Source of the DNA: Eukaryota sp. GEM-RC1
Taxonomy: Eukaryota
Assembly: GCA_040285855.1 (NCBI GenBank)
Contig: JAUFOQ010000006.1
Span: forward strand, 1,984,001 to 2,048,000
Direction: 5' to 3'
DNA length: 64,000 nt
The position numbers and the translations under genes were made by a program. Positions 1-64,000 of this stretch are shown here, in pieces (positions within the stretch are counted from its first letter, which is position 1; the number at the start of each line of letters is the position of its first letter). Below the pieces are notes generated by a model, which was given only the letters and a program-made list of their open reading frames with translations, was not told where the DNA came from and ran no database searches.

Positions 1-3000
1 CAATTTTTTTGGAACTGTGATGGCTGATTTTTTCTTGGTTTCCATCTAGATTTGTTAATATCTGCCTTTCTCTCCCCAGCAGTGTATCGGAACACCTTCC
101 ATTTGTCACGCCTTTTCCACTTTACAGGTTGTGGGTTAGTGTCTTGCTTCCAATCATTTAATTGTTTTTTCATTTTTTCAAACTTCCCCTTTTCTTAGAA
201 GATAATGGAGCAATCTTTCTTTTTCTAACTAGGGTAACTGGCTTGGGCTCAATTTCCTTCTCACTTGAGGAATCATCCTTCTCAACTGAGGAATCAATAG
301 ATTGTTCATTGGAAGTAAGATCAATTTCTGTAACACAAGCATTGGCCATTCCATTTTCTATCAATTGTTTTGTTTCATCGACTTCAAATTTCTCACACGC
401 CTCTTCCTCATCAGTTTTTAAACTGGCACAATACATGAGATCATGTTGGTTGGGGTCAACAGCAACAATTCTCTTAGATTTTAAATTCAGCTCTTCAATT
501 TCATCTTCACTTAAGGAATCAATATAACGCTCATTTGAAGCAAGATTAACTGCTATAACATTTTCACGGGCATTTCCATTTTCATCAAGTAAATCTTTCC
601 TCATCATCAACAAACTACAACTTAAACCGTCTGACAAAATTGAAGTGTATTTAAAGTCATAGGATAATGACTCTGGAATAGCCTGAGGTTTTAATACTGA
701 ATTCCAAATAGGTTTCCGTACATCATTATAGTTATAGGGAAGATCCCTACAAAATATTTCGTGAAACCATTGCGTATCGAACCTGATATGATTTGGAATT
801 AAAGATTTAGACAACGGGAAAGGATTGTTTGCTCTTACACCAGGACAATAGTCTTCAATGAGACGGTTCAAATATAATGCATGACTTAAAAAGTATAACG
901 GATCACTCTTTTCGGCATAGTAGATCGTTTTCTCCATCTTTCCTTCAAAATAATTAAACAAATAATTGAAGAATAATATACTCAAGTGAGATTCCGGATT
1001 GGTAAAAACTTGCTTGTCATCAAAATTAATTTTGGAAATTTCACCATTAATGATCAATTCTCTAACTTCATTAATCCTTTGACAGAGTTCTTGTCTTTGG
1101 GTTTTGTCAGTAAGAGCTTCCATTCTCTCTTTCTTTTGAGTAACCAAGTTAAAGACTTGAAAAACATACTCATGAAAGTGTTGGCTCATGTTGTTCTTAT
1201 AATTAGTAATAATTTCGGTTGCAACGTAACCGAGAGGGTTAGACAAATATAGTCCACTTGGAAACACGATCCTATCTCTGCCAACCATTTCACCAGCAGT
1301 TTCTAACAGAGGGATGTAGTTTGATAGGAAGTGTTGGGCGAACTCCTTCTTTGTAGTTGTTGTTTTTGCATTAGAAATGATGTTTTGTAAAGAGTTTTCC
1401 ACAGTTTTAATATGATCAGTACTGTTGAAAAATTGGTGATTTGGAATCCACATCATGGCCAACAGTTGTGACATTGGAGTCAACTTAAAGTAAGCTCCCC
1501 AGTCTGGTAATTCAAATTTGGTAGTTTGAATTTTAGTAAAAAGGTCAAGTTCAGGTTCACCAGTTTCATTTTCATCACCGTCTTCTTCTAAAATATGGCT
1601 GTCTTCTTCTGAAATTTCGGATTCAATTGTACGATCCAAACCAAAATCAGGGTCTGAAGTCACAGGCAATTCAGTTTCTTCTTCTAATTGTTGAGGCACA
1701 AACTCTTCACTTAAAACTTCTGTTTGTTCAGTGTCTGAAACTTCTGTGTCTGTTTCAATTTCTTCTTTAACAGTGAAAATGTAGTCAGATGGAGGTAGTA
1801 TCTCTTTGACCTTGTCGAAAATTAGAGAGTTGTGAAACTTAGTTACGAAAAAATGTTTCAACATATGAGTACCACGAACTCTGACTTGATGAGCTCTCTT
1901 AGCACAAGACTCCATCCAATTGGCTTTAGTCTTTGATACAACATTATCTAATCGTTTCTTCACTGTCTTCAATGGTGGTCGTTCTCTTAATTTTTGCTTC
2001 TTTTCATCGAGAAGATCAAAGAGAATGTATTGTATTAGAAACAACTTATTGATTGAGTTCAATAACAAAGTGGCTCTCGAAGTGTCTCTCGAAGTTTTAG
2101 ATTCCCAAAGTTCATTAAGTTTTGTTAATTCTGCTAACAATCGAATCTCCATTTCAGCTTTGGGTTTTAGTTTTACAGATGGAGCTGTGTTTTGACGTTC
2201 GTCAGTTTTAACCTTAATTTCTTCATCTGACACTAGAGGATTGTCTAAAGAGTGAAATATTCTCTTAAGGAAGATATCTTCATTGTCAAAACTTTCAAAT
2301 GTTCTTGAATGATTATTCATGTCCATCATAATTGTTGTCACGTTTTCCAAAAACCGATCTCTTCTAAAGACATACAACTTCTTCAATACTGAATTCAAGT
2401 CAAGGGAATAAAAAGGACCAATTTCCGTTGGTTTGCACCATCTATGGAACCAAGATGGAAGAGAAGAAATGTAATCATCAATTGTATAATCAATGTCAAT
2501 TTCTAATTTTTTACATCGTGATACTAAGAACGGAAAAGTATCTAAATGCCAATCATAACTTATTAACAAACTGGGCTTGTTAAGATTTAAAAATGTAATG
2601 AAATTTGTTAACATTGATTTTTCAGTTGTAAACGTGTGAACTACACAATTAGGAAGTGAAATTTCTGAAACATTATGGGTGAATAGGTGAGTTTCATTTG
2701 CAAATTTATCATGGGTAAACTGAAGAGAGATTGACACAATTGGGTCTAAATCTGGATCACGTTGAATTTCAAAAGTAGTATCCTGAATTTGTGGAATACC
2801 TTCTGAAGTTGATTCAATCTCTTCGTCTACTTCTGGAACCTGTTTAACTCGAACGACTTTAAGATTCAAGCGTTCAGGATCTGAGATCACACTTTTTACC
2901 TCAATTACACAGAACTTTTGTGGTTGTTTGGGTTCTTGTTCTGGCTGCACTTTAGGTATTGACGGAGGTGACTGAGATGGCATTGTCTGTTTACTTTCAG

Positions 3001-4630
3001 AAACAATTCTTTGTTTTCGTGTTTGAGGAGTAAGACCTGATTGACTGAGTGGATCTCTGGTCCTGATTTTTTTGGAGACACGGATAGGTGTGACAGGAAC
3101 GGGTTTTAATACTGTAGGTGGTAATGGACTGGCTGGACTGATTTTTGATTTTCGTTTTGCAGGAGTAGCACCAGATGGCTCTCTTGGTTTGGACTTACGT
3201 GACTCAGGATGATCAACAGTCGTTACCGTTGGTGGTACAAAATAATTAATAATAGTCTCTCGAACTGAACCAGCATCAATGTCCTTGTTAGCGTTCTGTA
3301 ATTCATCTTTTACAGCTGAAACGTTAACTATATTGCGATAGTTCAAAGCATGTACAAATATTCTGATATACTCAAGGACATAGACTCCTCAGTCATTAGG
3401 TGTTTGTTTCTGGGTAACAGGTACAATGATAGGCCTATACTCAAGCACACTAAGTGCTGAATTCACTGTTGATAAGAACACATTGAAGCTACCAGATGGA
3501 CATTCTACGTTTTCTTCATCTAGATAAAAATCATTAGTGTCGTAATTTGGATCAATGAACAACCACTTTCTGTGTCGACAGTCGATAATCAACAACCCCC
3601 AGTGATAACCTCTGGTACCTGTATTATTAATAACAGGAGCAATGAAATATCGGCAATAACCATTATTTGTCAATTGTTGTATGATAAACTTCGTGAGTAA
3701 AACAACATCAAATTGTTGAGTGGTTGTATCCACAGCATTGTGCAACATTAGAATCGGAGAAATAAAGCATTCAACAGGATAATTATGTAATTTTAAGAGA
3801 TACAGACAATACTGATCAATAACTTCATCATCGATCCACTCATCAGGCAACAAAGTCTGTAAGGCTGATTCAGAAATCGGTCCTGGATTGGACTCAATAT
3901 CACCATCAGCGGTGAGGTCTTCTTTGAATGGATGACGGGAGGAGAAAACTATACGTAATATGAGACACAAAGCAGAAATAGATGATGAAACAACACAAAG
4001 GATCATCTGAGGAATATTACGAGACGAAGTCGGGGGTATGATGGAAAGCACATGAACACAATTCACATAGGCTGTTTCACTAGCGGAAACGAAAATAATT
4101 CTCCAACATCTCATTATACTACCTTGGTCTTGAGGAGCGTGTGAGAGTGAAGTAGTAAGGCGGCAGGCGGAAGAGTAACTCCAACATCTCATTATACTAC
4201 CTTGGTCTTGAGGAGCGTGTGAGAGTGAAGTAGTAAGGCGGCAGGCGGAAGAGTAACTCCAACATCTCATTATACTACCTTGGTCTTGAGGAGCGTGTGA
4301 GAGTGAAGTAGTAAGGCGGCAGGCGGAAGAGTAACTCCAACATCTCATTATACTACCTTGGTCTTGAGGAGCGTGTGAGAGTGAAGTAGTAAGGCGGCAG
4401 GCGGAAGAGTAACTCCAACATCTCATTATACTACCTTGGTCTTGAGGAGCGTGTGAGAGTGAAGTAGTAAGGCGGCAGGCGGAAGAGTAACTCCAACATC
4501 TCATTATACTACCTTGGTCTTGAGGAGCGTGTGAGAGTGAAGTAGTAAGGCGGCAGGCGGAAGAGTAACTCCAACATCTCATTATACTACCTTGGTCTTG
4601 GAGAGCGTGTGAGAGAATTGATGTCGACAT
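1..4630 (-). CDS. Putative polyprotein: repeat leader / 2A / Ulp1-like protease / PolB exonuclease-like domain / Fanzor (TnpB-like); one in-frame TGA, one frameshift, truncated by the window edge
   Basis: ORFs 3389..4654 and 170..3346 are in the same frame, separated only by TGA at 3389-3391 (..QKQTPND*GVYVLEYIRIFVHALNY..). Motifs: DIESNPGP; WIDDEVID..HWGLLIID..FID; DPIVSIS..TEKSMLTNF..PSLLISYD; YVATEIITNYKNN, PFPLSKSLIPNHIRFDT, ILSDGLSCSLL, IVAVDPN. Adding one A to the A-run at ~173-178 restores KKQLNDWK..KWKVFRYTAGER, matching the second Fanzor. First ATG is at 4630. Confidence 0.75.
3878..3928 (-). other. 2A-like ribosomal skipping (StopGo) peptide
   Basis: Translates FKEDLTADGDIESNPG|P, matching the D(V/I)ExNPG-P consensus, after a hydrophobic stretch. 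Confidence 0.8.
4101..4616. repeat. 78-bp tandem repeat, ~6.6 copies (26-aa unit SHAPQDQGSIMRCWSYSSACRLTTSL on the minus strand)
   Basis: Unit starts ctccaacatc at 4101, 4179, 4257, 4335, 4413, 4491 and 4569. Confidence 0.97.
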
Positions 4631-5141
4631 TGAAAGTAAATGATTGTTTGGCAAAGATTTCTTCCATCTATAGTAGGATATCTTACAAGTCAGTCACATT
4701 TCATATAATTCCAAACGTAAGAGCTACTAGCTATCTCCTACTTACTAGCTACTAGCTATTCACCCATCCCTCCTGACGACTAAGAACTTATGTCCACTTC
4801 AGATTTTCTGTTTCATACAAGTGTCTCATATAGATTCAGGGTTACTCTAGTGTGGACATTAATAAACATAAATCTCTCTACATAAAACTTTATCTCTCAT
4901 AAGGTCTAAAAGTAATAACATGTATATTATCTTTTAAAAGCAAACTAGTATGCCTATGTAATTTGTTTGTTGATGTTTTCTATAGTATGTTTTAAAAGTA
5001 TATGTGATAAGTTATTTTATATTGTAATTCAACGTATCTATATTCAGATTAAAGCAAAGAGAAGTTATTAATTGATGACAAATGATTTATTCATACTGCT
5101 AGTAGCTACATGTACATATCCATTGTTTATCCATAACATCA

Positions 5142-7050
5142 TCAATCTACAAAAGTTCTGATTTCATCAGGTACATAAATATCATCGCGAAAGTACTCAA
5201 TAAACTTTTTCGACAAATTCTTAAAGGAAAAAAGATCGTCGTCATGTGCCAAAAGAATCTTCAACTTGTAAACTTTTTCATGCAGAGTTCGAAGTAGTAG
5301 CATGTCAGAGGGAATGTCATATACGATGCACATGAGATTGTTTCCAATGCTACAGTCTGGATTGTTACAGATCATGTTAAATGTCACTTGTGTGGCTGCA
5401 ACAAGAAGTGCTTTGCTTTTTTCTTGCAAAAATAACTTGAATGTATTTGTTTTCTGGGGAGTTTTTGCAAGATTGCATAAGGAGAATACGGTACATGGTA
5501 ACTTTTGTTTAAACTGTCTTACGAGATCTCTACCAGTTTCAATGTTTCCAACCGTGATAATGATTTTATCTTGTGTGTTCAAGTAGTTGTTGCAAACTAT
5601 CCAATTTGAGGTGTGATACAATTAACTGTGATTTTTCCGAGCACGTGGGAATTGATGAAGATATACTTGATGAGGGAGTTGGATGAGGGAGTTCTTCGAC
5701 AGATTCTTCATCATGTGAACCCAATAAATTCACGTAGTCAGAATCCGTGTCATAATTCGGAGCTATCACATCACTTTCAGTTCTTACTTTTTTTTCTGGT
5801 TTAGTCACTTTCATAGCGTCTGATCTTCGTTTGCGGATATCTGGGAGATCTTTGTCTTCAGATATTTCGTCTTCAGAAATTTCGTGTTGGAAAAAGCCGG
5901 CCAATAGTGATTTGGAATGCTTAGAAAAAGTCCAGTCCGGTGGTGGGTTCGTAGATATTTCGGAAGAGAAGGAAGATGCAGTATCTGCCCAGCGTAGAGT
6001 CACAATACTTCCTGTGTCAACAACACAATAGATTTCGGGCTTTACGAGTGATGGGAAAATTTTAATAAGTTTGGAAAACTTCGCATTAGCAGAGACAAAA
6101 CGATTATCAGTTTCCAACGTATTCTCTTCAACATGGTGAATACATATTTCTAATCGTTCAGAAACGTATATGATATACTCGGGGTGGCCAAATAATCCAC
6201 AAGCATCAATAATGACCTCGTGTGTTCCCGTTCGAAAAATACATTCTGCAGTGGCATTAGTCTGTGTGACAGAAAACAATATACAAGGAATTATCTCCGA
6301 TAATAATTTTTTTGTGACTAATATCAGGAATCACTCCAAATTTTTTAAAGTTTACACCATTTGGAGTGGAAATGATGACATCATTGAAGTCAACACTGTT
6401 TTTGGCATAAAAAATTGATTTAGCAGTCAACAGCAGATGCATATAGAACATCTCAAATTCGATAAAGGTCGAATCAATCACACTTTCTGCTTTTGGAAGA
6501 TCATGTCTTTTAACATATTTACTTGAATCCTTGATTGCTGGAATATGGGTTAAAACACCATCTTTTCACCAATATATACATCTTTACGCCTTACACTTAC
6601 ACTACTACATTCAGTCATCACTCCAACTTCAGAAGTAAAAAAGATTTCAGTACTAAAAATCCGTGTCGCGAAATTTAATACAATGACACTACATTGATTT
6701 TTAATGGGTAAGAACACCCACATTGAAGAGGGATGAGTTGGAATGGTGCCTTGTACTGCTATTGAACTATAATCAAAATTGGGAAGATCAATTCGATTCC
6801 ATAAACAGTCATCACCAACTGTCCATATCAATACTTCTTGAGAAGCTGTCAAAACAATAAGATACAAGCCACATCTAGTAATTACTGCATTTTTAATTTC
6901 AGATGCACATGATTGTGTAGAAACAGCTGTGAAATTTAATGGATCAAATGGAGTTGATGACAACAAGACATTGGCAAGAGCAGGCTGAGGTATAGGTGGT
7001 TGCTGGACAAATAATGGTTGAAGGTCAGTTGTATCTGTCTGTAATTCCAC
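5142..7050 (-). pseudogene. Fragmented cargo ORF(s): beta-propeller-like segment followed by a degenerate helicase C-terminal (RecA2)-like segment
   Basis: Chain of ORFs 6550..7050, 6257..6481, 5566..6279 and 5142..5621. The last has QDKIIIT..FLQEKSKALLVAAT..IVYDIP, resembling HELICc. ORF 6550..7050 is in frame with the helicase across TAA 7093-7095. Confidence 0.4.
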
Positions 7051-7092
7051 AGATGAATTCTCAACATGGGATAGGGGTTCAGTTTCAGAAAA

Positions 7093-10000
7093 TTAGTATT
7101 TTCCTGAGGCAGAGTAGGTACGCATATATTCAATCAGTTCAGTTAAAACATCGCATTTGACACAATTTGGACATTCAACATTGTTGCAAAATTTAAAGGT
7201 ATCAACATATTGGTCGATTGAAAACGGCTTGAGACCACCAATGTCATAAGATATGTGCTGTAGATCAATAACTGATCCAGGTTGTACATTTGTAACAAAT
7301 GTGAGTTTCTGTTGAAGTATCGCGATCTGTTCAAATAGTGATGATGGAGAGATTCTTAATCTTTCAGCCAGATATAGAATAAATCGACATCGATTAAGAC
7401 AACCAATGACATTGATCAATTGAGATAATACATCTGCATCATAATCATAGTCAAGTTGATCACCGTCAACATTAAGAATTGCAATCTTTTGTTGTTCAAT
7501 AGATCCCTTCGTAAAATTGAGAAACATTAGTTGGGTGAATAAATTTAATAGTGTAGGCTGAAAGTAGCAACATAATAGGGGAAACTGTTTTTGTGATGAC
7601 ACAAAAACACCAGAGTAATTGTAGCAACAAGAGGCAGGTAAACGAGTGAAAAGTGAATTGTCAAATTTGAAATCAATGCCGTCTACAGAACCATTCAGTG
7701 TAGTACACTTCAAGGGTTTTTGATAATAATTGTTTTCAAACATCGGTACCATATTAAGTTCTAGTTTTCCATTACGATCACAAACAAGATGTTTATTTAA
7801 CAAATTGGCAATCTTTTGATTAGTAAGACGCTTTTGTTTATCCATATCATGAAGTGGTTTATAATTACCAGAATCCAGACCGACCGAACAATGCACGTCA
7901 TTGATGAACGGCAATATGCGTTTATGAAATTTTGAAGCAACCTCATTTTCGAACATTTTGGCAAAGACGAGAGGTGTTACAGTGTTGTTGGATTTGTAAA
8001 GGGTTAGAAACAAACGCTTTGGATGATCTTTAGGTAGCAAGTGTAAATGAACACTGTTTTTCAGGTATTTTGAAAAACATAGAACATCATTCAAATCATT
8101 GAGGTCGAGTGGTAGTAAATCCCGCATCATTTGTTGAAAGATACATTCAATAGGAACTTCAGTTGGAGATGTGAGGACTGTTGACCTTCGTGGACTACGG
8201 AACAAAATTGTATTGTTAGGATAAGATGAAATAAACAACTGGGTCAATTTTTCTGATTCTGTTAAGTAGCAAAGTTGTTGATAGAATTGCTGATTCTGGA
8301 AAGCAGACCATTCATTATTATTCTTATCGATAAAAGTACGGTTGAGATTAAAGTTTCGAAATTTGAAGCGATTAGTGAGTAACACCTTAACACGATCTGC
8401 ATTATTAAGCATAGTTTCAAAAATGAATTCCAAGGAGTCAATATGGCCTTTAAATGAATCATCGACTTGTTGTTTCCACTTGATGATCTGATTAATTTTT
8501 CTAATTAGTGTATCACAGAAAAACTTGAGAGATTGGATATTTAAATAGTCCAGAACTTCAACATTGATTGTACCAGATAGTAATCGGAACAAAAATTTTA
8601 ACATAACATTTAAATCTGAATATCCATGATCAGCGTCATCAGCAAGATACAATTTCAAAAAGTTCCCAAATTTAGCAACTTGATTTACACTATCTGTATG
8701 AAACTTGAAGTTGAACAATTGTGTATCAAATGCACATAATAGGACCAATCCCGGAATAACTTGTTTTCCAAAAAAACAATTAAAAACAAAATGAAAATGT
8801 TCATGAGAGTCACAAAACAAAATTCCCATTCGACCCAATGGTGTTAGTCCATCTACGATATATTCACTTTCCATGATGTTTCGAAGATATAATGAATGCA
8901 TTGCTACATCCAAGAGATCATCCTTTGGTGGATCAGGCATTGACTTGATAAATTTTCGTGGTGTGTTTGAAATCCTTTTGACTGTTAAAAGAAAATCTTC
9001 CAAGGGAGAATTAAGAATTTGGGGCAATTTAGTTTGATGCCTGAATTCGTTGCCGATATATTCAAAGTCAAATAATCTGATACATATACCAGGCATGGTT
9101 CGACCAACTCTCCCAGCACGTTGAATTGCTGAGGACTTTGAAACATGGTGGAGAATCAATTCCTTTTTATAATTTGGAATTCTTTCAAGTCCAGTGTCCA
9201 AAGCGATCACTGCATTGTCAATTGTGAGGGAAGACTCTGCAATGTTCGTAGAAGCAACTATTTTAAATTCTTTGTTTTGAGGTTTACTTGTTGCCTTCTG
9301 TTGATCATCTCCACTCATGTCAGAATCTTTCATTACACGATTTCACTAGAGCATCAGCCTCAAAAGCACCAGGTAAAAATACAATGACTGTTACACCTCT
9401 CATATCGATTGAAACGTTCCAATAATCAAGGATAATATCATAAATGGAACAAAGTATTTCTGTCAGTGCTCGTGTATTAATGATTGAAGGTTTTACAAAT
9501 TTGGAGCACATTTTCTCGAAGTTATTTCTATATGTCCGTACAGCTGCACGTAAATCATTTTGATGACTCAAAACAGCAACACCAAATTCGGATGGAAACC
9601 CAAGCGTCAGCTCGTCAGTCCACTGACACGTATCAAAATTGTTAAAGTCAAGAACATTCAGTGTTCTTGTGAAGAAACCTGTATCAAATGAATACATAGC
9701 TTGTTGATCAATGATGTCAAAGTCACATGAATTTTTTGAATCAAAATATGAGAATATTGAATTCACTTCACCTGATTTTGAACCCAATGTAGCTGAGGCA
9801 AATCCACGTACAACCGAAGAGTCTTGCAAATTCAATTTCATTGACGTTAAAAGCAGATCAACATCCATCGACCTTTCATGAAATTCATGGATGATGACAA
9901 CTTTGAATTTTGATTGAAACATTTTGGGATTTGCCATCAGATTGACAGTAAGCCCAGTTGTCTGATAATGAATCAGTGTACTGGCAGTGATATTATTGTC

Positions 10001-10849
10001 ACCTCCACCAAGTTGGAAAGCGGCAATCGGTAGATCAGACGTGAATTGACTACCTTCTCGTGTACCAGATGATTTATTTAAAAATTGGGCAAGAGCTCTG
10101 CAAGACATTCGGGTTGGTTGCGACACAATAACATTTGAGAGAAAAGCCATTGCAAAAATGATTGGGGAAATTGTGGATTTTCCTGAGCCAGTTGAGCCAG
10201 TAATTACGTATGGAAAATCCGATGGCTGTTCTTTATAGCAGGAAATGCAATGGTTAAGTAATGTCACAAAAGACTCTTGACCATCTGCAGTTGATACAAA
10301 AGATAGCTTGTGTTTAGTCTTAGCTTTGTAAAGAATGTTCATCATGCAAGATAAATGAACAATACTGATAAGGTTATGGTTCTTGACATTTTCTATCCAG
10401 TGCGGAAAAATTAAATCGCAAACCTTTGAAAGAAAGATATCGCCCAATTCGGTAAACTCTTTCTTCAGAACGTTGTATTCAGAGGGTGGAGTTGGATGAA
10501 ATATTTCGGGGAAACTACTTTTCGAAGTTACATGACATACTTACTTCTGCCATACGATCTTCTTCCATAAGAGATTCTTCCATACGATCTTCTTCCATAA
10601 GAGATGAAACATGGTAGAACGAAAACCACTTTGTACAATACTGCCTTGGTCTTGAGGAGCAGAGTACAAAGAAGCGACGACAGCGGAGGAAACAGAGTGT
10701 AAAGAACTTTGGACAATACTGCCTTGGTCTTGAGGAGCAGAGTCCGCAGTTGTTACGATGAAAGGATTCATGTAAACGAAAGAATTGTATCTACATGAAG
10801 ATATCTCACCACACTTCTTTCTGATAGTTCTTTCCCACAGACTTTTCAC
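7093..10849 (-). CDS. DEAH/RHA-family helicase-like protein (frameshift at ~9330; probable 27-30 nt intron near 10515-10544)
   Basis: GSTGSGKST (Walker A), VSQPTRMS, IIHEFHERS (degenerate DExH), SAT, VFLPG, STNIAESSLTID, QRAGRVGR. ORF 10541..10849 is in frame with 9320..10447, and the intervening TAA lies within GTAAGT...AG. Confidence 0.75.
10635..10743. repeat. Two copies of a 31-bp motif, 78 bp apart, related to the 4101-4616 repeat
   Basis: acaatactgccttggtcttgaggagcagagt at ~10635 and ~10713; its core differs from atactaccttggtcttgaggagc in the 78-bp array by one base. Confidence 0.9.
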
Positions 10850-10999
10850 AACAAAATGCCTTCAGACTGACTGGTCATTCTAGTGTCTATGCAGTTATGT
10901 GCCCAAACTCATAATCCTTGACTCTCCTGACTCCTTCAAACTATGATCAATGACAAATATTACAGGCCAGTCTTGTTTATTACTATGCTTTATAGGAAT

Positions 11000-11674
11000 C
11001 TAAAGTTCAAAAGGATTCTTCGTAAAATTGGATTTTTTGACAAGAGACTTAAGAGGAGGGAGTGGAGTCGACGTAATCTCAGTTGTTCCAGTTGATTCTG
11101 ACTCTAACTCATTGCTTGAGTTACTTGATTCTTCTTCATCATTCAATAATTTTTCTTCTCTAACTGTCTTTGGAGATTTAACTTTCTTCATCTTAGCAAG
11201 TCTTGCAGAACATGAAACTTTTTGATGTTGTTCATGTTCTGCAAGATCAGACAAGTCTATTGCTGAGTCAGTTTGATCTTGAATCAAAACAGTATATAAA
11301 TTTTGAGATGACAAGGAATTAGTGGTACCATTCTTTTCTTCAAGAATATGAGTTTCTTTGTTAATAAAGAATTCAATGTTTTCCTTAAGATTATCACCAA
11401 CAACATTTTTAAACCATGTTGTATTGTTGGTGGACACTGCGATATGAGAAGTACTATCAGCAGCTCGGGTGATTAAGATAAAATCTCCATTGATTCCGAG
11501 ATTGTAAGATGAAGTTGAAGGAGTTGATTTTGTCTCAGTAAAAGAAAAGACATTGTATACATCTTGATGTTTAGATGCATACTTCCTCTGATAGGCAGAA
11601 AGACGATGTTTCCGAGACAAAACGTTTGTTGATGAGTTCATGCAAATTTTGCCGGTAAACAAATTTTCCTTCAT
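11000..11674 (-). CDS. Hypothetical protein (element cargo)
   Basis: 224-aa ORF with no recognised motif. Confidence 0.4.
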   Translation of the reverse strand: MKENLFTGKICMNSSTNVLSRKHRLSAYQRKYASKHQDVYNVFSFTETKSTPSTSSYNLGINGDFILITRAADSTSHIAVSTNNTTWFKNVVGDNLKENIEFFINKETHILEEKNGTTNSLSSQNLYTVLIQDQTDSAIDLSDLAEHEQHQKVSCSARLAKMKKVKSPKTVREEKLLNDEEESSNSSNELESESTGTTEITSTPLPPLKSLVKKSNFTKNPFEL

Positions 11675-12464
11675 CGTAATCTCAATGTCTTTGAACGAAC
11701 CTTCTCTTGAAGTGATGTCAAGTCTGTTAGCACAGTTTCATGAACAATGCAACAGAAGTTTGATAACCTTATGCAATTGTTGTCATTGTACTTCGTTAGG
11801 AGATAATTATGTGACCACATCTATATCAACTTCCTTAAAAGATCTTGTGTCAACTCTGTTCTACCCTTCATCAGAAACTTCTAATGTTGAGGAAGTCTTG
11901 ATCAGAGTATCTCATCTTTGGCAGTTCACGCCTCTACTCAACAGTTTTCTCAACTGGACATGTTTAATTGATATTCTTCTTCATTGTTGTCTCAATGATG
12001 ATACTTGTTTGTTTTTGAAGCATTTGCATTTGCTGATCAATAGTTTTGCTTGTTTAGTTGGTATATTATTTTGTCACAGTTCTCGATCTTCTACAACTTT
12101 ATTAATTCCTGCACTCCTCCAAAGTTCACTTCATGATGATGGTCATTTAAGACTTGTTTATTTTAAAAAGATTGAGGATAAACTGTTGTTATTACTTGAG
12201 GACAATGATTATTGTTTGTCTGTTTCAAAGTTTGTTTTGATTTTTGTTAACATTGTTTTAGCAAAAGGTAATAGTAATGATTATACTGGAGTTGTCAATT
12301 TGTTTAGTTTTATTTTAGAACGAAGTGATTTTGTTGATTTGAAACATGTTTTGACTTGGAAAATGTCAGGTAATGATGAGATTGATGTGGATAATTTATG
12401 TGATGAGTTGTTGCAGTTTATTGATAGTGTAGTGAAGTATGTTTGTAAGTATCTGTGTAACTAG
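11640..12464 (+). CDS. Hypothetical helical protein (element cargo, antisense to Fanzor)
   Basis: 274-aa ORF ending immediately before the 14-bp array. Confidence 0.45.
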   Translation: MQILPVNKFSFIVISMSLNEPSLEVMSSLLAQFHEQCNRSLITLCNCCHCTSLGDNYVTTSISTSLKDLVSTLFYPSSETSNVEEVLIRVSHLWQFTPLLNSFLNWTCLIDILLHCCLNDDTCLFLKHLHLLINSFACLVGILFCHSSRSSTTLLIPALLQSSLHDDGHLRLVYFKKIEDKLLLLLEDNDYCLSVSKFVLIFVNIVLAKGNSNDYTGVVNLFSFILERSDFVDLKHVLTWKMSGNDEIDVDNLCDELLQFIDSVVKYVCKYLCN

Positions 12465-12473
12465 ATAAATATT

Positions 12474-12660
12474 GTTACACATCTTGTATTACAGATCTTG
12501 TAAAACATATATTGTATTACTGATCTTGTGTTACAGATCTTGTATTACAAATGTTGTGTTACAAATGTTGTGTTACACATCTTGTATTACACATCTTGTA
12601 TTACGAATCTTGTGTTACAAATCTTGTAAAACACATTTTGTGTTACAAAAAGCACTTGTA
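12474..12660. repeat. 14-bp tandem array (TTACACATCTTGTA-like), ~13 copies
   Basis: atcttg and variants at 14-bp period: 12481, 12495, 12523, 12537, 12579, 12593, 12607, 12621. Confidence 0.92.
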
Positions 12661-12760
12661 GTTTTGTAAATTCAAATATAAAATAGTCAACAATTCAAAA
12701 GATCGAAGGTGAAAAAAATATCAATGTCAACAATTCATTACACATACGACACTTTCATTT

Positions 12761-12920
12761 CAAATGTTGTCATTACAAATGTTATATCACCAAATGTTGT
12801 CATTACAAATGTTGTCATTACAAATGTTATATCACCAAATGTTGTCATTACAAATGTTATATCACCAAATGTTATCATTACAAATATTGTCATTACAAAT
12901 GTTATCATTACAAATATTGT
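12761..12920. repeat. 15-bp tandem array (CAAATGTTGTCATTA / CAAATGTTATATCAC), ~10.5 copies
   Basis: Direct reading of the 15-bp period; shares the TTACAnATnTTGT core with the 14-bp array. Confidence 0.92.
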
Positions 12921-12923
12921 ATT

Positions 12924-13067
12924 TCAGAAGATCCTGGCAGTATCTTCTTGACTAAGTCCTAAGAACAAATACCTCCATACAGCACGTGCTTTTAAGTCTT
13001 CTGAGGGTTTTAGGGGAAGAGATCGAAAATCTTCGTGTGAATGAAGAAGATCCCAAGTCAAACACAT
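12924..13067 (-). pseudogene. Tc1/IS630 transposase N-terminal HTH remnant 1
   Basis: MCLTWDLL..PSEDLKARAVWRYLFLGLSQEDTARIF aligns by eye with MGYTYDML..ASEDTIVRAVWTYYWLGKTQAQIAEYY of the transposase at 55014. Confidence 0.7.
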
Positions 13068-49192: not shown

Positions 49193-50376
49193 TTAGTTGT
49201 CACAAGATGTGTAATACAAGATTTGTAACACAAGATGTGTAATACAAGATGTGTAATACAAGATGTGTAATACAAGATGTGTTTTACAAGATGTGTAATA
49301 CAAGATGAAACTATCAAAATTACCTATATTGTCCAATCTTTTCAAAATTAAATATAATTCAAATAAAACACACATACCAGTCTTTTCATCATTTTTCAAA
49401 TACTCTTTCAAAACATGAAACAATTCCACAAGCACATCACTACAATAACGTTCATCAACATTATCCTTATTAATCACATCGGTAATGTAACAGTTCCTTA
49501 TTGTTTTCACTTCCATACTTGATGCAGATTCAGATCCAATACAATCTAGTACATTATCGACAATTGACTGAATTCCAATAGTTAAGTCCACTCTCAATTG
49601 TTTGTAAGTAGCAACACGATTATACTCCAAAATAGGAGACAATGATATTGTTTCATAAGTCACATTGTCAGTTTGTTGATATTCACATATGGAATCACAT
49701 TTTTCATTTTCAAAGCTTTCAGTCTGAACTTCCTTGAGACAAAATCGTTTTTCATCATCAATAAGAGGAAACACTTGGGAACTTTTTCTTTCTATACCAG
49801 CACTGACATTCTTATTTAATAATAAATTCTTCGTTGGTAAAGGGGTTTTCTTCAAACGGGGAAGCGATGGTAGAGTAATGTTGCCTCGTGGTAATTGAGG
49901 AAGTTTAGACTTATTGACACAAATCTCAGCAGAATTTTTGTTAAAAATTGAGTCACAATTAATAAATTTGGGAGGAATATTAGTTTCATCTTCTTCAAGT
50001 TCATCATTTACAACAAAATCATCTAAACTTGTTGAAATTGTATCATTATCAGATTCATCACCAGAATCGGATCCTGATAGTACAGCTTCTGTTTCAAATA
50101 AATTTGATTTTTCGAAATGGTTTAAACGATTTTTTCCAAGTCAATAATTTTTTCATCAACATTATCAACAATAACTTCATCAACACAATGAACATCTTCA
50201 GGAACAACAACATCATCCGTAATTGGTTCACTCGATTCTGCACAAAAGTTTGCAAACAATGAATTAAAATGATTGAAATCTCGTTGAAGACAATGTTGAT
50301 TTCCCAAAACATACAAATCAATAGTTGATGGCTTAACAGGATGAAAAGTTGAATAATACCATTGATACAATTCCAA
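49193..50376 (-). CDS. Hypothetical protein antisense to Fanzor (probably one frameshifted gene)
   Basis: ORFs 50122..50376 and 49193..49855; ends within the 14-bp array. Confidence 0.4.
49201..49307. repeat. 14-bp tandem array, ~8 copies; reverse complement of the 12474-12660 array
   Basis: caagat at 49203, 49217, 49231, 49245, 49259, 49273, 49287 and 49301. Confidence 0.93.
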
Positions 50377-50401: not shown

Positions 50402-53350
50402 ATGCTTAAAATCTTTAAACTCCTCCAAGACCGTCTCAGTGTTATCCGAAATCAAAGAGCAACAGTAAGGGGTTCTAATTTTTGAAACATCTCCTTATTT
50501 GTGAGTTTGAAACACGTGGATGTGAATTAAATTTGATGAATCGTCATTACTTTCGGCAATATCTCTTAGAATCTTCTGTTTCGGAATCAAAAGAACGAGA
50601 TTTAATGTACGAACATGATTTTTTGGAGAAACGACTTCGTGAAATGGAGTTAATGTATGAACATGATCTTTTTGAGAAACGACTTCGTGAAATGGAGTTA
50701 ATGTATGAACATGATTTTGATTCGTATCCATCAGAACTTTCTGATTTGTTGGCATTAAATGAACGTAAATTAATGAAGAGCCATGATACAATGCCTGATT
50801 CTGATGATGCATCTGTTTCTGATCCGTTAGAACCTTCTGATTTACCCCTCTACACTAAGTTTTCAGTAGTCTTACCAGATTTGAAAAAACTGCTTAAACA
50901 CGATTCTATTAGACAAGTATTGAGACGGATGTATGTGAAGAAATCAACTGGTTCTTCAATTACAGAGTCAGAACTAGAAATGTCAAGAGCAGAGGCTCAA
51001 AAAGTGATTGACGATTTCCAAAAATCTTCAAGACTAGAAATGATCGAAAAAGAAAAAATTGCATTTCACTACTTGAACAACTTTTCTCCACTTCTACAAC
51101 AGTTGTCTGATGAAATTGGAACAAATCAAATTTCATTTCCTGATTCTACGTCAATGTCTCCCATATTTCATTACACTGCCAAACAAATTTCTACAAATTA
51201 TGCCAACAATATGGTCAAAAATTTTCATGATTATGTATTCAGATTCTTTAATCTGGTAACAAGAAAGAAAGTAAGACTTGAACAGATAAATGATCAAGTT
51301 GATAAGAAAGAATTGATTTCGAAATTGAATTCAGTCAGAGATTCGATTATCGATGGAAATTTTGATGACATTCCAATTGCAGATCACGAGATTTTCCCTA
51401 ATCCACGTGAAGAACTAACGTTGAGGTTTTTTTGCGTATTTGAAATTTTCATTGTTTCCAATGTTTTCAAAAAGAACATTTACTATTTACAGAAAGCAAA
51501 GCCGACAGAGTTAATTTCTCATGCTCTGTACATCAACCGAACTATACAATCTTTGTGTTTGGTTGATGGAAAACCAATCAGTGTAAACAACCCTTTTCCA
51601 ATGACGAAGACATTGATTCCTCAGCATATTCGTTTGGACACAGGTTGGATGAATGATAGATTTGTTCATATACGTGGCAAAAATGCAGATGAAATAAGAA
51701 AAAAGGTCTTTGATCAGGTCCTTACTGACAAAGCTGTGGCACCAACAAAATCATTTGTCTTTAGATATTCTTCAATTCTGACAGATGGAATTTCTTGTTG
51801 TTTGGTTTTAATGAGGAAAGATTTGGTTGATGAAGATGGAAATACTTTCAAAGATTTTACTGCTAAATCTCTCGGAACTGCGGAAAGATACATTCACTCT
51901 TTATCAAATGAGAATATTCACGAATTACAATTGAAAGAAAAAAAGAATTGTCGGTGTCGATCCCAATGAATATGATTTAATGTATTGTGTTTCAGAAAAG
52001 ACAGTCGATGAGCTTAAAGATGAAGATATTTCAGAAAATAATCCACTCAAAAAACGATTACCCTCAGAAATCAGAAGTAAGAAAAGAGGAGGAATTAAGA
52101 AAAGAAAGAAACAATTACAAGATTGGAAAAATTCGAATAATGATGTAAAATCAAAGAAAAAGGCTAAGCACAAATGGAAAAAGTTTAATTATACAGCTGG
52201 AGAAAGAGCTTACGATAGGAAATCTAAAAAATATCGTAAATCTGAAAATAGAAAACTGAAAGAATTTTCTATCGAATCACCAGACGAAACTGTCACTGAA
52301 AGACAACTTAAAGATTTTTTGGTTCTCCACTCTGATAGAATTCTTGTAACAGGAAGAGATGTCACTAACCAATTCTCCAATGCTGTATCAAACGGGGAAA
52401 GAAAGTCGTGTTTCAGTGACACATTTGGAACATATATTAAAGAAGCTGAAAGATATAACGTATATTTGAGTTCTTTCTACGAAGATGACTGGTTTAGAAA
52501 GAGGAAATTCCAAATTTATTCTAATAACCAACGTTCGGAGAAAAACATGCTGGAACGCTTCAATTTAACATATGGACCTCCAGAAGATGTCGTCATTGGG
52601 TATGGGGATTGGAGCTCAAAAGGTAAAACAAGAAAGGGCAAAACCTCTACTGTTAGAGGAGTGGAAATCCGTAAAATGTTAAGAAGATATGGATACCAAA
52701 TATTTCTTGTTGATGAATACAGAACAAGCAAGTGTTGTTCCAAATGTGCTAAGGAAAAATCAACTTTCGTAGAATGTGAAAATGTTTCGGAACTAAAGGT
52801 TCTTGGTCCCAAAGGTAAGAGACAGCTAAGAAGGAAGAAGAGAAAGTTAAGAAGAGAAATTTTGCTCAAAAACAAACAAGATCCTCTAAACCAGCGGGAT
52901 TTTTGGAAGCAGAGTGGGAGGTGAAGCAGAAGTCATTGGAAGAAGAAGCTAAATCCACACCCTGGGGACTGGTAAAGTGCTCAGATGCTGATTGTGGTAC
53001 TTATTGGAATAGAGACCTAAATTCTGCCATTAATATCTATTCCATCATTGAAGCAACGATCAATGGTCAAGGTAGGCCATCCGCTCTCGAGAGATCTAAA
53101 ACTCAAACAACAGATCTCAAGAGTGGTAAGGATACTTTGGCGAGAGACCAGAAGAAGAAGAAGACTGCGACCAAAAAGAAGAAAAACTTCAACAGGAAAG
53201 AACAAAACTTCGACAGGAAAGAAGAATACATGTGGAAATTGTGGCCAAGAAGGTCATAACAAAAGGTCATGCCAGAATCCACCAAAAGAAATGAGTTCGC
53301 CTAAAAGAAGAAGCGTAAAGTCAGTCAAGAAGAAGAAGGTCTCTCGTTAA
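50402..53350 (+). CDS. Fanzor1-type (TnpB-derived) RNA-guided nuclease with C-terminal CCHC knuckle; four homopolymer frameshifts
   Basis: VRGSNF(L)KH; YTAKQISTNYANN; PFPMTKTLIPQHIRLDT; ILTDGISC; IVGVDPN (RuvC-I, shifted frame at ~51950); IGYGDWS; VDEYRTSKCCSKC; CSDADCGTYWNRDLNSAINI (RuvC-III); CGNCGQEGHNKRSC. Confidence 0.85.
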
Positions 53351-53445
53351 TAACTTTAGTGTACTTTTAACGGTACACAGCGCAGTGGGCTTAGCTCACT
53401 GAGTGTCTGTGGTTTCGATACTCTAATCAAAATGAAAATTAACAA
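53351..53445 (+). ncRNA. Candidate Fanzor omegaRNA 3' scaffold / element end
   Basis: Hairpins GTGTAC..GTACAC, CAGTGGGC-TTA-GCTCACTG and GAGTGTC..GATACTC immediately after the Fanzor stop codon. Confidence 0.5.
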
Positions 53446-53504
53446 AGTTGTGTACTTTGGGAATACTTGTATCCATTTGAGTTGAGAACCACAGTGGATA
53501 TCAT

Positions 53505-54264
53505 CAGGAGTTGGAAAAATTGCATTGCCAATTAATTGTTCTCAGTTTTTCAGAGACAATGAATTATTGCAATTATCACATGTGCTACAATTAATTGGGC
53601 AATTAATTGGTCTGTGATAAATTGACCATTTGCACTTAAAAGAAAGTTCAAAAGTTTGTTCTTTATGATAACAAAACTAGTTTTTCAGTGTACAATCAGT
53701 GTTCATTAACGTCTTGCAGGATATTGTGCGCTTAATACCGGAAAATTACCTATTGAGTTCGTTTTCTACAAAGTTGAACGGTCTGAGGCCTTTAATAACC
53801 AACTTCATTCATTTAAAGTATTCTGAGTATTTGTCTTCAATTACAAATGTGCCAAGAGTGCTCATTTGCCTTTCATCAAGTCATTGTGCTCCTGTTGAAA
53901 ATTAACATGCTTTGTTCTCAGATGGTTGGAAAGATTTGTTCACACGTTACCTTTCAATATCATTGCTTTGCACTTACAAGTGTAGTGTTGCCCTTTGACG
54001 TGAGCACTTTTTCCAGAATCGGACGGAGAAAAGAAAGTCAAGCACAGAGTACGATTGTATGTAGGTAAAGGAAGGAAAGTGTTTTATTGTACATCTGCAT
54101 TCTGTTATCTGTTTGTAATTTCTATTCATTTCGTGCATTTGAAACCCCCGTGATAATTGCAATTAATTGCCCAATTAATTGTCGTCCTATTTTGGGGCCA
54201 ATTACTTATTGCAATTAATTAATTGGCAATAATTTAATTGGCAATGCAATTTTTCCAACTCCTG
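53505..54264. mobile_element. hAT-type MITE (760 bp)
   Basis: 31-bp perfect TIR CAGGAGTTGGAAAAATTGCATTGCCAATTAA; 8-bp TSD GATATCAT at 53497-53504 and 54265-54272; subterminal CAATTAATTG motifs. Confidence 0.92.
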
Positions 54265-55013
54265 GATATCATATCAAAGTTAGTAATTCTTCTACTGTGG
54301 AATTCTTTTGGTGTGAATAATCCTGGAATTTGGACCTTTTAATTTGGAGACTTCCCCCTTTTCTGTTTTCCCCCCTTTTTGGAGGATCAGTTTCTGTCTC
54401 TTCTCCGTGTCTTTTAGTCTGTGTCTGTCACCTGAGATGTCGTGTTCGGTATAGTGTATATATCAGGGAAACTTGAACTGATTTCTTTCATACAGATTTC
54501 CATCTTCTATGAGCTAGGGCGTCGTTTCACATCTATGTTATCGCTTTGATACTTAATGAGTACATATTGGTTCTACATCTTCGATATCTTGAGGAAGTTC
54601 CTTCTCTTTCAACAACAACACTCTCTGCTGCAACATTACATTGACAACACTTATCAACCGGTGAATGTTCTGGTAAGTAGAGAAGGTACAATTCTTATGT
54701 GAGACATCTCAAATCCACGTCAGTCATAGCTTTTATTTCAAAAAACAATAAAGATCCATCAGCATCTGTTTACACGGTATGGAACAAACCCTAGATTTAG
54801 TGCTGACCTCGATTTAGTGCCGGTCCAAACAGTGGCACTATAGATCTTCAATAAACTATCCCTTTTATTCATTCGTTACTTAATGGAAGTTGTTGTTTCA
54901 ACACTACAAAATAGCATCTAACAGTGTATTAGTGACATCTGACTGATAACCGGAAACAGAACGTCTTGATTGATAATCTTAAATCTAGATTTGCCTGCGT
55001 TTTCTGTTTCTTT

Positions 55014-56102
55014 ATGGGGTATACTTATGACATGCTCTTCGATGCCAACATCGACATTCGTCAACTGTGCTGTAACGCCAGTGAAGACACAATTGTCCGA
55101 GCTGTTTGGACCTACTATTGGTTGGGTAAAACACAAGCTCAAATTGCTGAATACTATTGTGTGTCTCAGCCTACAATTAGCCGTTGGATAGCTTCAGCTT
55201 TTGAAAACAAGAAACCAAATGAGGAAGAACTTGATCCTCGTCTTAAACTTGATGCTGCTGATTTGTCCTTCATTCAAAACACGCTACATCTTCATCCGCT
55301 TCTGTATCTTAGAGAAATTGCATCCCTTGTTCACAAAGAGCGTGGCAAAAAAGTATCTGTATCCACTATTCAGAGAGCCCTGGTCAGAATGGGTTACACT
55401 CATAAACGTTGCAGAGCACTTGTTCGCAGAGCCAAGTTAGAACTAATTTTATCATTTGAAAACAGAATAAACCACCGATGTATTGTACTTATTAACCAAC
55501 TGGTTTTCATTGATGAAGTTTCATTTAGAGCATCAGACTTTCAAAGGTCTTCAGGTTGGTCACTGAAGGGTAACGAGATTGTTGTTGAACAAGTTGATCT
55601 CGCTTATCACAACATTTCTGCATGTGTAGCAATTACACAACACGGCTTTTTAAGTGCATTTATCCAATATGGGCATTTCTCTCGATTGCAATTTGTGAAG
55701 TTTATTCAAAATCTCTTATTTCATGGATATTTGGGAACAAGTGGTTTTGCTCGAAGCTGTATTATTTTGGACGGTTGTAAAATCCATGTAGATTTGAATA
55801 TTTCTCAGGCCCTGAGAAAAGCAGGAGTTGAGTATTTTGTGTTGCCTCCCTATTGTCCCGAAAGCAACCCTACTGAGGTATTTTTCAAAGTGTTTAAGTC
55901 AAAAGTACTAGACTTTTTTGAACATAACCCACGAGGAAACGAACTAGTAGATTTGTTTCGAGTTCTTGATACAGATATGCGGTTCTCTTGTCACAAAATA
56001 TTTGCACACTGTGGGTGGTCAAATGAAACCTTCTTCAAGTCAACTTACAGGACCAATTCAATGCTTGCTGCCAATTTAGCAGAAAAGACCACTAATAAAT
56101 AA
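55014..56102 (+). CDS. IS630/Tc1/mariner-superfamily DDE transposase
   Basis: HTH VSQPTISRW; LYLREIA..VSVSTIQRAL; catalytic VFIDE, IILDG, LPPYCPESNPTE. TIRs not found. Confidence 0.9.
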   Translation: MGYTYDMLFDANIDIRQLCCNASEDTIVRAVWTYYWLGKTQAQIAEYYCVSQPTISRWIASAFENKKPNEEELDPRLKLDAADLSFIQNTLHLHPLLYLREIASLVHKERGKKVSVSTIQRALVRMGYTHKRCRALVRRAKLELILSFENRINHRCIVLINQLVFIDEVSFRASDFQRSSGWSLKGNEIVVEQVDLAYHNISACVAITQHGFLSAFIQYGHFSRLQFVKFIQNLLFHGYLGTSGFARSCIILDGCKIHVDLNISQALRKAGVEYFVLPPYCPESNPTEVFFKVFKSKVLDFFEHNPRGNELVDLFRVLDTDMRFSCHKIFAHCGWSNETFFKSTYRTNSMLAANLAEKTTNK

Positions 56103-63539: not shown

Positions 63540-64000
63540 ATGTTTATTATTCTTCTTTTTCTTCTTTTACTGTTTCGAGTTTTAAAAACACCATCAGGTG
63601 TTCAGGATGCGTTCACAGGAGTTTATCCTAAGGACGTATTTCCTTTTTTCTTCTTTTTTCTTCTTTCACTGTTTCGAGTTTTAAAAACACCATCAGGTGT
63701 TCAGAATCCTTCTTTCGTCTTTTCTTATAACGTCGTTATTTTTACAGTAGTTTCTGTATCAACAATAAATAGCATTTGTCCATACAAAGAGGATTTGACT
63801 TTGTGTGGAGATGTTGAAAATAATCCAGGGCCTGATGACAGAAAGTCTAAGCCAGGAATTTATGTTGTTGTTGAAGATAGTAAATTTTGGCGAAAATTTG
63901 AGTCTCCAAAGTCTTGGAAGCAATACATAGAAAATCTAGAAAAACGACCCGTTTACAAAAAGTGTTATTCCGATGCTGAAGTTGAAGCTTTTGCCAAAGC
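63540..64000 (+). CDS. 5' part of an ORF absent from the ORF track: duplicated hydrophobic leader, 2A motif, RNase H1 hybrid-binding (Cauli_VI)-like domain; runs off the window
   Basis: ATG at 63540, open to the end: MFIILLFLLLLFRVLKTPSGVQ..LFRVLKTPSGVQ..CPYKEDLTLCGDVENNPG|PDDRKSKPGIYVVV..VYKKCYSDAEVEAFAK. Confidence 0.75.
   Translation, partial: MFIILLFLLLLFRVLKTPSGVQDAFTGVYPKDVFPFFFFFLLSLFRVLKTPSGVQNPSFVFSYNVVIFTVVSVSTINSICPYKEDLTLCGDVENNPGPDDRKSKPGIYVVVEDSKFWRKFESPKSWKQYIENLEKRPVYKKCYSDAEVEAFAK

Follow-up and report, generated by a model that had tools for sequence, protein, structure and literature searches.

A real and conserved 2A (StopGo) peptide, which on comparative grounds is probably functional, separates a repetitive leader from the enzymatic part of a Fanzor1 element in the window (the whole 64,000-nt stretch of Eukaryota sp. 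GEM-RC1 DNA that was analysed), where it is seen in a broken copy. In the reading preferred here, to which a probability of about 0.68 is assigned, translation would start at an ATG of the leader, the Gly-Pro bond of the 2A would be skipped, and the enzyme part would begin at Pro whatever leader precedes it; the 2A, in short, likely releases a disposable leader.

The open frame that contains the peptide (3389-4693, minus strand) proceeds from 26-aa repeat units through a unique hydrophobic stretch to RHPFKEDLTADGDIESNPG/P, which ends at 3878 (the slash marks the predicted skip). The 2A itself, FKEDLTADGDIESNPG/P (3878..3925, minus strand), belongs to the DLTxDG class and has an aromatic residue three positions before the first Asp; the predicted skip would separate Gly (3883-3881) from Pro (3880-3878). 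Read as PFKEDLTADGDIESNPG/P, the same segment (3878-3925) is in frame with a Ulp1-type domain that starts three residues downstream; the longer peptide LILRIVFSSRHPFKEDLTADGDIESNPGP is encoded at 3964-3878 of the minus strand, with its DIESNPGP core at 3901-3878. Across the window's six frames, D[VI]ExNPGP was observed twice, against 3.6e-5 occurrences expected by chance. DIESNPGP, which is in frame and part of a longer ORF, agrees with (D/G/C/N)(V/I)ExNPGP, the core of class A 2As; the upstream DLTADG, with its aromatic residue at D-3, corresponds to motif 4 as defined in the accessible text of PMC12846837; and conservation at the peptide level, as expected of class A 2As, is found among relatives. 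The aromatic residue at D-3 recurs in all of the 13 tabulated sequences of skoliomonad type; of the distinct viral DLTxxGD peptides, 39/68 have it, against at most 5/68 with an aromatic residue at neighbouring positions.

Likeness to viral motif 4 extends to the hexapeptide itself, to p12 = D and p15 = S and to the aromatic residue at D-3, and the nearest viral 20-mers have 15/20 residues in common with the window's 2A; the differences from the viral motif, as it is presented in the accessible text of PMC12846837, are that Phe replaces the commoner Trp at D-3 and that the peptide follows a leader in a mobile gene on a protist chromosome instead of lying between two viral proteins. On one 39-kb viral contig (L068, 8001-9139), three DLTxxGD-class 2A motifs were observed within a single 1,307-codon frame. 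A viral example of motif 4 (DLTxDG) gave almost 100% StopGo in reticulocyte lysate, and changing its characteristic residues abolished activity (accessible text of PMC12846837). Among non-viral 20-mers with DLTxxGD[VI]ExNPGP in a published screen, counted over all 46 'DLT' rows of supplementary file 3, two of four skipped and two did not, and one of the two non-skipping peptides has Phe at D-3, like the window's 2A (PMC13405545). The window's own peptide is absent from the published screen files searched, and other supplements of PMC13405545 may list such peptides; a 14-mer identical to part of it is entered in file 3 of PMC12338488 as untested and of unclassified origin.

In an unlikely alternative, the 2A would be mainly a brake: stalling or drop-off, or a reduction in mRNA or product, would limit a toxic nuclease, and clean two-product skipping would be minor. 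Such a role would be in keeping with the report, in the accessible part of a preprint, that retrotransposon-associated 2A-like peptides mostly lowered protein abundance (ORF1p in 70% and ORF2p in 59% of cases; bioRxiv 2026.06.17.732966), and with the scoring of several DGD[IV]E peptides as 'fall-off only'. It is opposed by the retention of the full motif-4 signature and by the position of the skip proline exactly at the start of the protease domain, consistent with a requirement for a defined N-terminus.

The leader consists largely of a 78-nt x 6.6 tandem array (4101..4615, minus strand, by tandem-repeat detection), and its variable length, already proposed from the sequence alone, is borne out by comparison of the window copy (~6.6-6.7 units of 26 aa) with the paralogue P0014 (3.7 units). 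The first in-frame ATG (4630; feature 4616..4630, minus strand) opens a leader of 250 aa, and the last in-frame Met (4006), which together with the hydrophobic pre-2A stretch occupies 3926..4006 (minus strand), would leave a minimal leader of 42 aa; the paralogue P0011 is annotated as starting at the equivalent of this Met. Only the 2A-aligned frame of the six is open in the 78-nt unit, although openness of the unit alone is a weak signal, being found in 33% of shuffles as well. Each unit carries one in-frame ATG and, 5 nt further on, an out-of-frame ATG. Folding of the whole unit gave no hairpin support (z -0.35), and a by-eye comparison of the repeat with the cores of twister, hammerhead and HDV ribozymes produced no full fit.

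The hydrophobic stretch invites a further reading, which we consider improbable, that it constitutes a signal sequence which, together with the 2A, leads to dual targeting or to docking of translation at the ER. The best 15-residue hydropathy is 2.5 in the window's leader type, 2.1 at 63.7 kb and 1.75 in leader type B, the peaks end 19-26 residues before the skip, and 2A-like signal sequences of the sea urchin provide a precedent (accessible text of PMC4981915); nevertheless, the other leaders are weak in this respect (hydropathy 0.69-1.5), the stretch is without sequence conservation, U-rich DNA yields such residues by itself, and secretion would be of little use to a nuclear nuclease. Both the brake and the signal sequence can be reconciled with skipping as the main event.

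Release of a disposable leader agrees with the mosaic structure of the family. The leader types, whose tandem units span 26, 32, 33 or 38 aa and are present in 2.7 to 6.7 copies, are mutually unrelated (13-35% identity between types over the 30 residues before the 2A), and residues 1-50 after the 2A fall into three protease subfamilies that are 22-36% identical to each other. The leader/enzyme pairings seen are A-U1, A-U2, B-U2, B-U3, C-U3 and D-U1; the window's leader type precedes two protease subfamilies, a second leader type likewise precedes two, and two leader types are found on the window's own protease subfamily. The paralogues are gene-model proteins without DNA, and for that reason open frames may be over-represented in the leader models and repeat periods. 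The point at which leader and enzyme switch is the 2A itself, and, because the stretch that encodes it is the only homology common to all leader types, the 2A is likely also the crossover point for swaps of 5' modules.

The window contains a second 2A. At 63540..63833 (plus strand), a leader with a 99-nt spaced repeat is open for about 87-98 codons (an open frame of 87 codons is found in only 0.7% of shuffles) and represents a fifth leader type; it terminates in YKEDLTLCGDVENNPG/P (63807-63833, plus strand), ahead of a different ORF that is cut by the window end. This 2A, YKEDLTLCGDVENNPGP in the region 63540-63998 (+), heads an ORF whose 56 visible residues are unrelated to Ulp1; this ORF matched no Pfam family and gave one weak Atlas lead, and it may resemble the hybrid-binding domain of RNase H1. 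Between the first and last Pro, the window's two 2As have 13 identical residues, encoded by eight synonymous and five identical codons, and the residue changes between them are F/Y, I/V and those at variable positions; the regions upstream of the two loci have no similarity beyond the 2A. The 2A is thus conserved as a peptide, not as DNA, and, because it persists without Ulp1 (see the TZLM3-RCL relatives below) and precedes another ORF at 63.8 kb, it is tied to the leader and not to the protease.

All close relatives are records of Eukaryota sp. GEM-RC1 and TZLM3-RCL, which are skoliomonad metamonads from soda lakes (accessible text of PMC11316075). Fragments of the element lie on at least 12 different contigs of GEM-RC1, so the element is dispersed and hence mobile. 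The 22 paralogue-search proteins (P0008-P0029) comprise the window's own protein, 12 that begin downstream of the junction and nine that cover it; DLT[AM]DGD[IV]ESNPGP is kept in 7/9 of the latter, across three protease subfamilies, in a search whose region included the 2A and so favours 2A-bearing matches. In the remaining two, P0009 has an I-to-T change in the 2A core and P0013 leaves the frame inside the motif. A search with the Fanzor part alone retrieved P0039, a TZLM3-RCL protein of 1,473 aa in which WRRNLVLDGDVEANPGP lies near residue 110. P0039 lacks Ulp1 and has every RuvC motif as well as an exonuclease that retains the acidic motifs. The 2A motif is also kept in the full-length sister of P0039, P0180 (1,479 aa), has decayed to ANLGP in the truncated relative P0182, and falls outside P0181, which is without its N-terminus; a canonical 2A is therefore present in two of the three N-terminally complete TZLM3-RCL relatives, both of them full-length ORFs, and in P0039 and P0180 it occupies the same N-terminal place as in the window copy, without the protease. 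Lack of conservation among copies, which the sequence-only reading had named as grounds for abandoning the idea, is accordingly not what was encountered (7/9 paralogues and 2/3 second-species relatives keep the motif).

The same comparison leaves very little room for the view that the 2A is a functionless relic of a captured retroelement or viral 5' end. The window copy and many paralogues are indeed fragmented, and the motif is damaged in 2/9 paralogues, but the peptide is conserved through synonymous divergence between the window's two 2As and is retained in intact ORFs, across two species and across Fanzors that are 36% identical.

Directly after the skip proline, ISESALQTLLPDEWIDDEVI forms the start of a Ulp1/C48-type cysteine protease domain (HWG, FIDP, Q..ND-stop-G; 3300..3877, minus strand, lower boundary approximate), as the sequence-only reading had placed it: the alignment of a paralogue to a solved CE-clan protease begins at residue 51, three residues after the skip proline (residue 48). 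With the in-frame stop read as X, Pfam Peptidase_C48 scored 21.3 bits (cut-off 20.7); as a query among long proteins, the protease region gave no match. One paralogue subfamily (P0012, P0020) has a tandem pair of Ulp1-like domains; in the second, Ser takes the nucleophile position and DLTADG lies just ahead of the His motif. The His-Asp-Cys triad with its oxyanion Gln, complete in the paralogues, is incomplete in the window copy, where a TGA (3389-3391, minus strand) occupies the position of the catalytic Cys. As Cys is found at the nucleophile in 11/11 paralogous proteins that cover the protease motif, and as TGA ends host-like ORFs in the window (3/11), the TGA is a copy-specific nonsense change or a base error; since it replaces the catalytic Cys, no full polyprotein would arise from the window copy, barring sequencing error, and the post-skip product would be a truncated protease of 163 aa. 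The placement of the stop exactly at the nucleophile and the continuation of the frame beyond it might suggest an intact copy with TGA recoded as selenocysteine or Cys, but this is scarcely credible, and a selenocysteine or reassigned codon is rejected on account of the same 11/11 Cys residues and TGA-terminated host-like ORFs, with no Rfam match at gathering level in 1-13000.

Beyond the Ulp1 domain, a low-complexity linker leads to a DNA polymerase B-type 3'-5' exonuclease domain (2498..2911, minus strand, by Pfam), whose first and last acidic motifs are degenerate in the window's family and intact in TZLM3-RCL relatives; in the intact Fanzor1 proteins P0039 and P0180, this domain is apparently active by sequence. 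The N-terminal half of the Fanzor1 nuclease follows (1..1600, minus strand), up to RuvC-I (VAVDPN), and the gene continues beyond the start of the window, leaving its 3' end outside the window and RuvC-I as the only RuvC motif of this copy inside it; P0039 and P0180 have all RuvC motifs and the zinc finger. In the window copy, the Fanzor frame is broken by a frameshift within an A run (about 170-180), which rules out a point mutation as the origin of the stop at 170-172, and the paralogues P0007 and P0030 end at the same place, either through a shared lesion or through a systematic homopolymer error. Within the window, neither a transposase nor termini could be assigned to this element. A search of sequencing runs listed none for 1-4100, a result that does not bear on expression. 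A profile of six relatives matched three solved Fanzor1 structures (E 5e-78 to 9e-46) and no Fanzor2, in agreement with the earlier assignment to a Fanzor element.

Several neighbouring features deserve mention. The 23-nt core of the 78-nt leader repeat has two further copies, 78 nt apart, at 10.6-10.7 kb, before a helicase gene without a 2A; since the core precedes such a gene, the repeat and the 2A are not obligately coupled, and its presence both in the Fanzor leader and before the helicase suggests a shared 5' regulatory element. No match to the core was found in viral contigs. The two copies (10616-10758) have different spacers and are flanked by stems that differ yet pair (GTAC/GTAC, GGAC/GTCC, CTCA/TGAG); their minus-strand folds have z -4.2 and -2.9, the core-adjacent differences are also synonymous in the peptide APQDQGSI, and the pair might act as a promoter or as an RNA element. 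The gene itself (5142-10540, minus strand) is a split DEAH-type helicase gene, accompanied by additional unannotated ORFs and lying behind the shared repeat; the stop between leader and helicase frame sits in GTAAGT and could open a 30-nt intron, and this gene and the Fanzor may belong to one mobile unit. A second Fanzor1 (50479-53500, plus strand) is frameshifted, has a CCHC knuckle-like tail, no 2A, Ulp1 or exonuclease in view, and, over 50.5-53.3 kb, 37% identity to the window's first Fanzor; its structured 3' region (z -2.9) may be its omega-RNA. Downstream lie a MITE-like insert (53505-54264) with perfect 31-bp terminal inverted repeats and a flanking 8-bp direct repeat, GATATCAT, and an intact-looking IS630/Tc1-type DDE_3 transposase ORF (54936-56102, plus strand). 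The same 14-nt tandem repeat occurs at 12475-12649 and 49202-49307, in opposite orientation and 36.6 kb apart.

In the APE-type non-LTR retrotransposons L1Tc, Ingi, CR1, L2 and Rex1, a canonical GD[VI]ExNPGP likewise occurs close to the start of one long mobile-element ORF, and it often immediately precedes the first enzyme domain, as here (Odon et al. 2013, accessible text of PMC3708506). In contrast to the elements described there, the ORF here encodes a Fanzor1 polyprotein, and its subfamilies exchange leaders that consist of long tandem arrays. In the ORFs scanned, Pfam detected neither a reverse transcriptase nor an APE domain, and the full-length P0039 has exonuclease and Fanzor domains only; because neither APE nor reverse transcriptase follows the 2A, the window element stands outside the APE-type non-LTR class. 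With the Fanzor1 proteins SpuFz1, PpFz1 and GtFz1 (Bao and Jurka 2013, PMC3627910; Yoon 2023, PMC10711439; Jiang 2023, PMC10530073), it shares the profile match and, in intact relatives, the RuvC and zinc-finger motifs, whereas its length is more than twice the usual (1,473 aa for P0039, against mostly 600-700 aa) and the skoliomonad family adds an N-terminal 2A, an exonuclease of polB type and from none to two Ulp1 domains. Capture of a Ulp1/C48 domain by a mobile-element protein is also described for the DNA transposons Ginger1 and Mutator in the accessible text of PMC2836005; here, however, the domain is fused to a Fanzor instead of a transposase and is N-terminal, behind a 2A.

That a 2A would be unusual for a Fanzor, as the sequence-only reading had supposed, agrees with the surveys. 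None of 160 Fanzor loci (the best 80 of 397 viral and the best 80 of at least 499 metagenomic matches; 1.73 Mb) carries one, and their ORFs are mostly stand-alone and 600-700 aa long; among 150 protein representatives, the one 2A is that of the skoliomonad relative P0039, the other 149 being without a 2A-like motif. The family-specific 2A DNA pattern had no match in metagenome contigs. Among the papers listed by term searches of the literature, none was seen to describe Fanzors with a 2A or fused to a Ulp1 or exonuclease domain, and none joins '2A-like', 'DNA transposon' and 'ribosome skipping'; the terms 'Ulp1' and 'exonuclease' are absent from the main text of PMC3627910, PMC10711439 and PMC10530073. 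N-terminal StopGo, known for LINEs and not found in print for Fanzors, would here appear to be a known recoding device in a new setting.

Under the preferred reading of leader release, translation would start at the leader ATG, and possibly at the ATG of any repeat unit; at the 2A, the ribosome would release the disposable leader and continue into a protease-exonuclease-Fanzor1 product with a fixed N-terminal proline. Skipping would render the enzyme indifferent to the leader or start used, while the tandem repeats would act mainly as nucleic acid, namely as 5' promoter or UTR monomers with one ATG each. Fall-off at the skip site may also ration the DNA-cutting protein. A broader and more tentative proposal is that a portable cassette of repeat promoter and 2A is common to skoliomonad mobile elements, its 2A codons serving both as a recombination hub, through which 5' modules would pass among Fanzor subfamilies and to unrelated genes, and as a translational switch that erases the leader, such that the longest known Fanzor1 proteins, which unite a nuclease, a SUMO-type protease and a proofreading-type exonuclease, might be expressed like viral polyproteins. 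If true, StopGo recoding, known from RNA viruses and retrotransposons, would extend to the RNA-guided Fanzor nucleases. The intact relatives of about 1,470 aa represent a natural Fanzor-exonuclease fusion, in which altered cutting or repair outcomes would be of interest. A possible answer would also emerge to the question of why mobile elements keep an N-terminal 2A: the 5' end would be free to change promoters and repeat numbers while the enzyme is left untouched.
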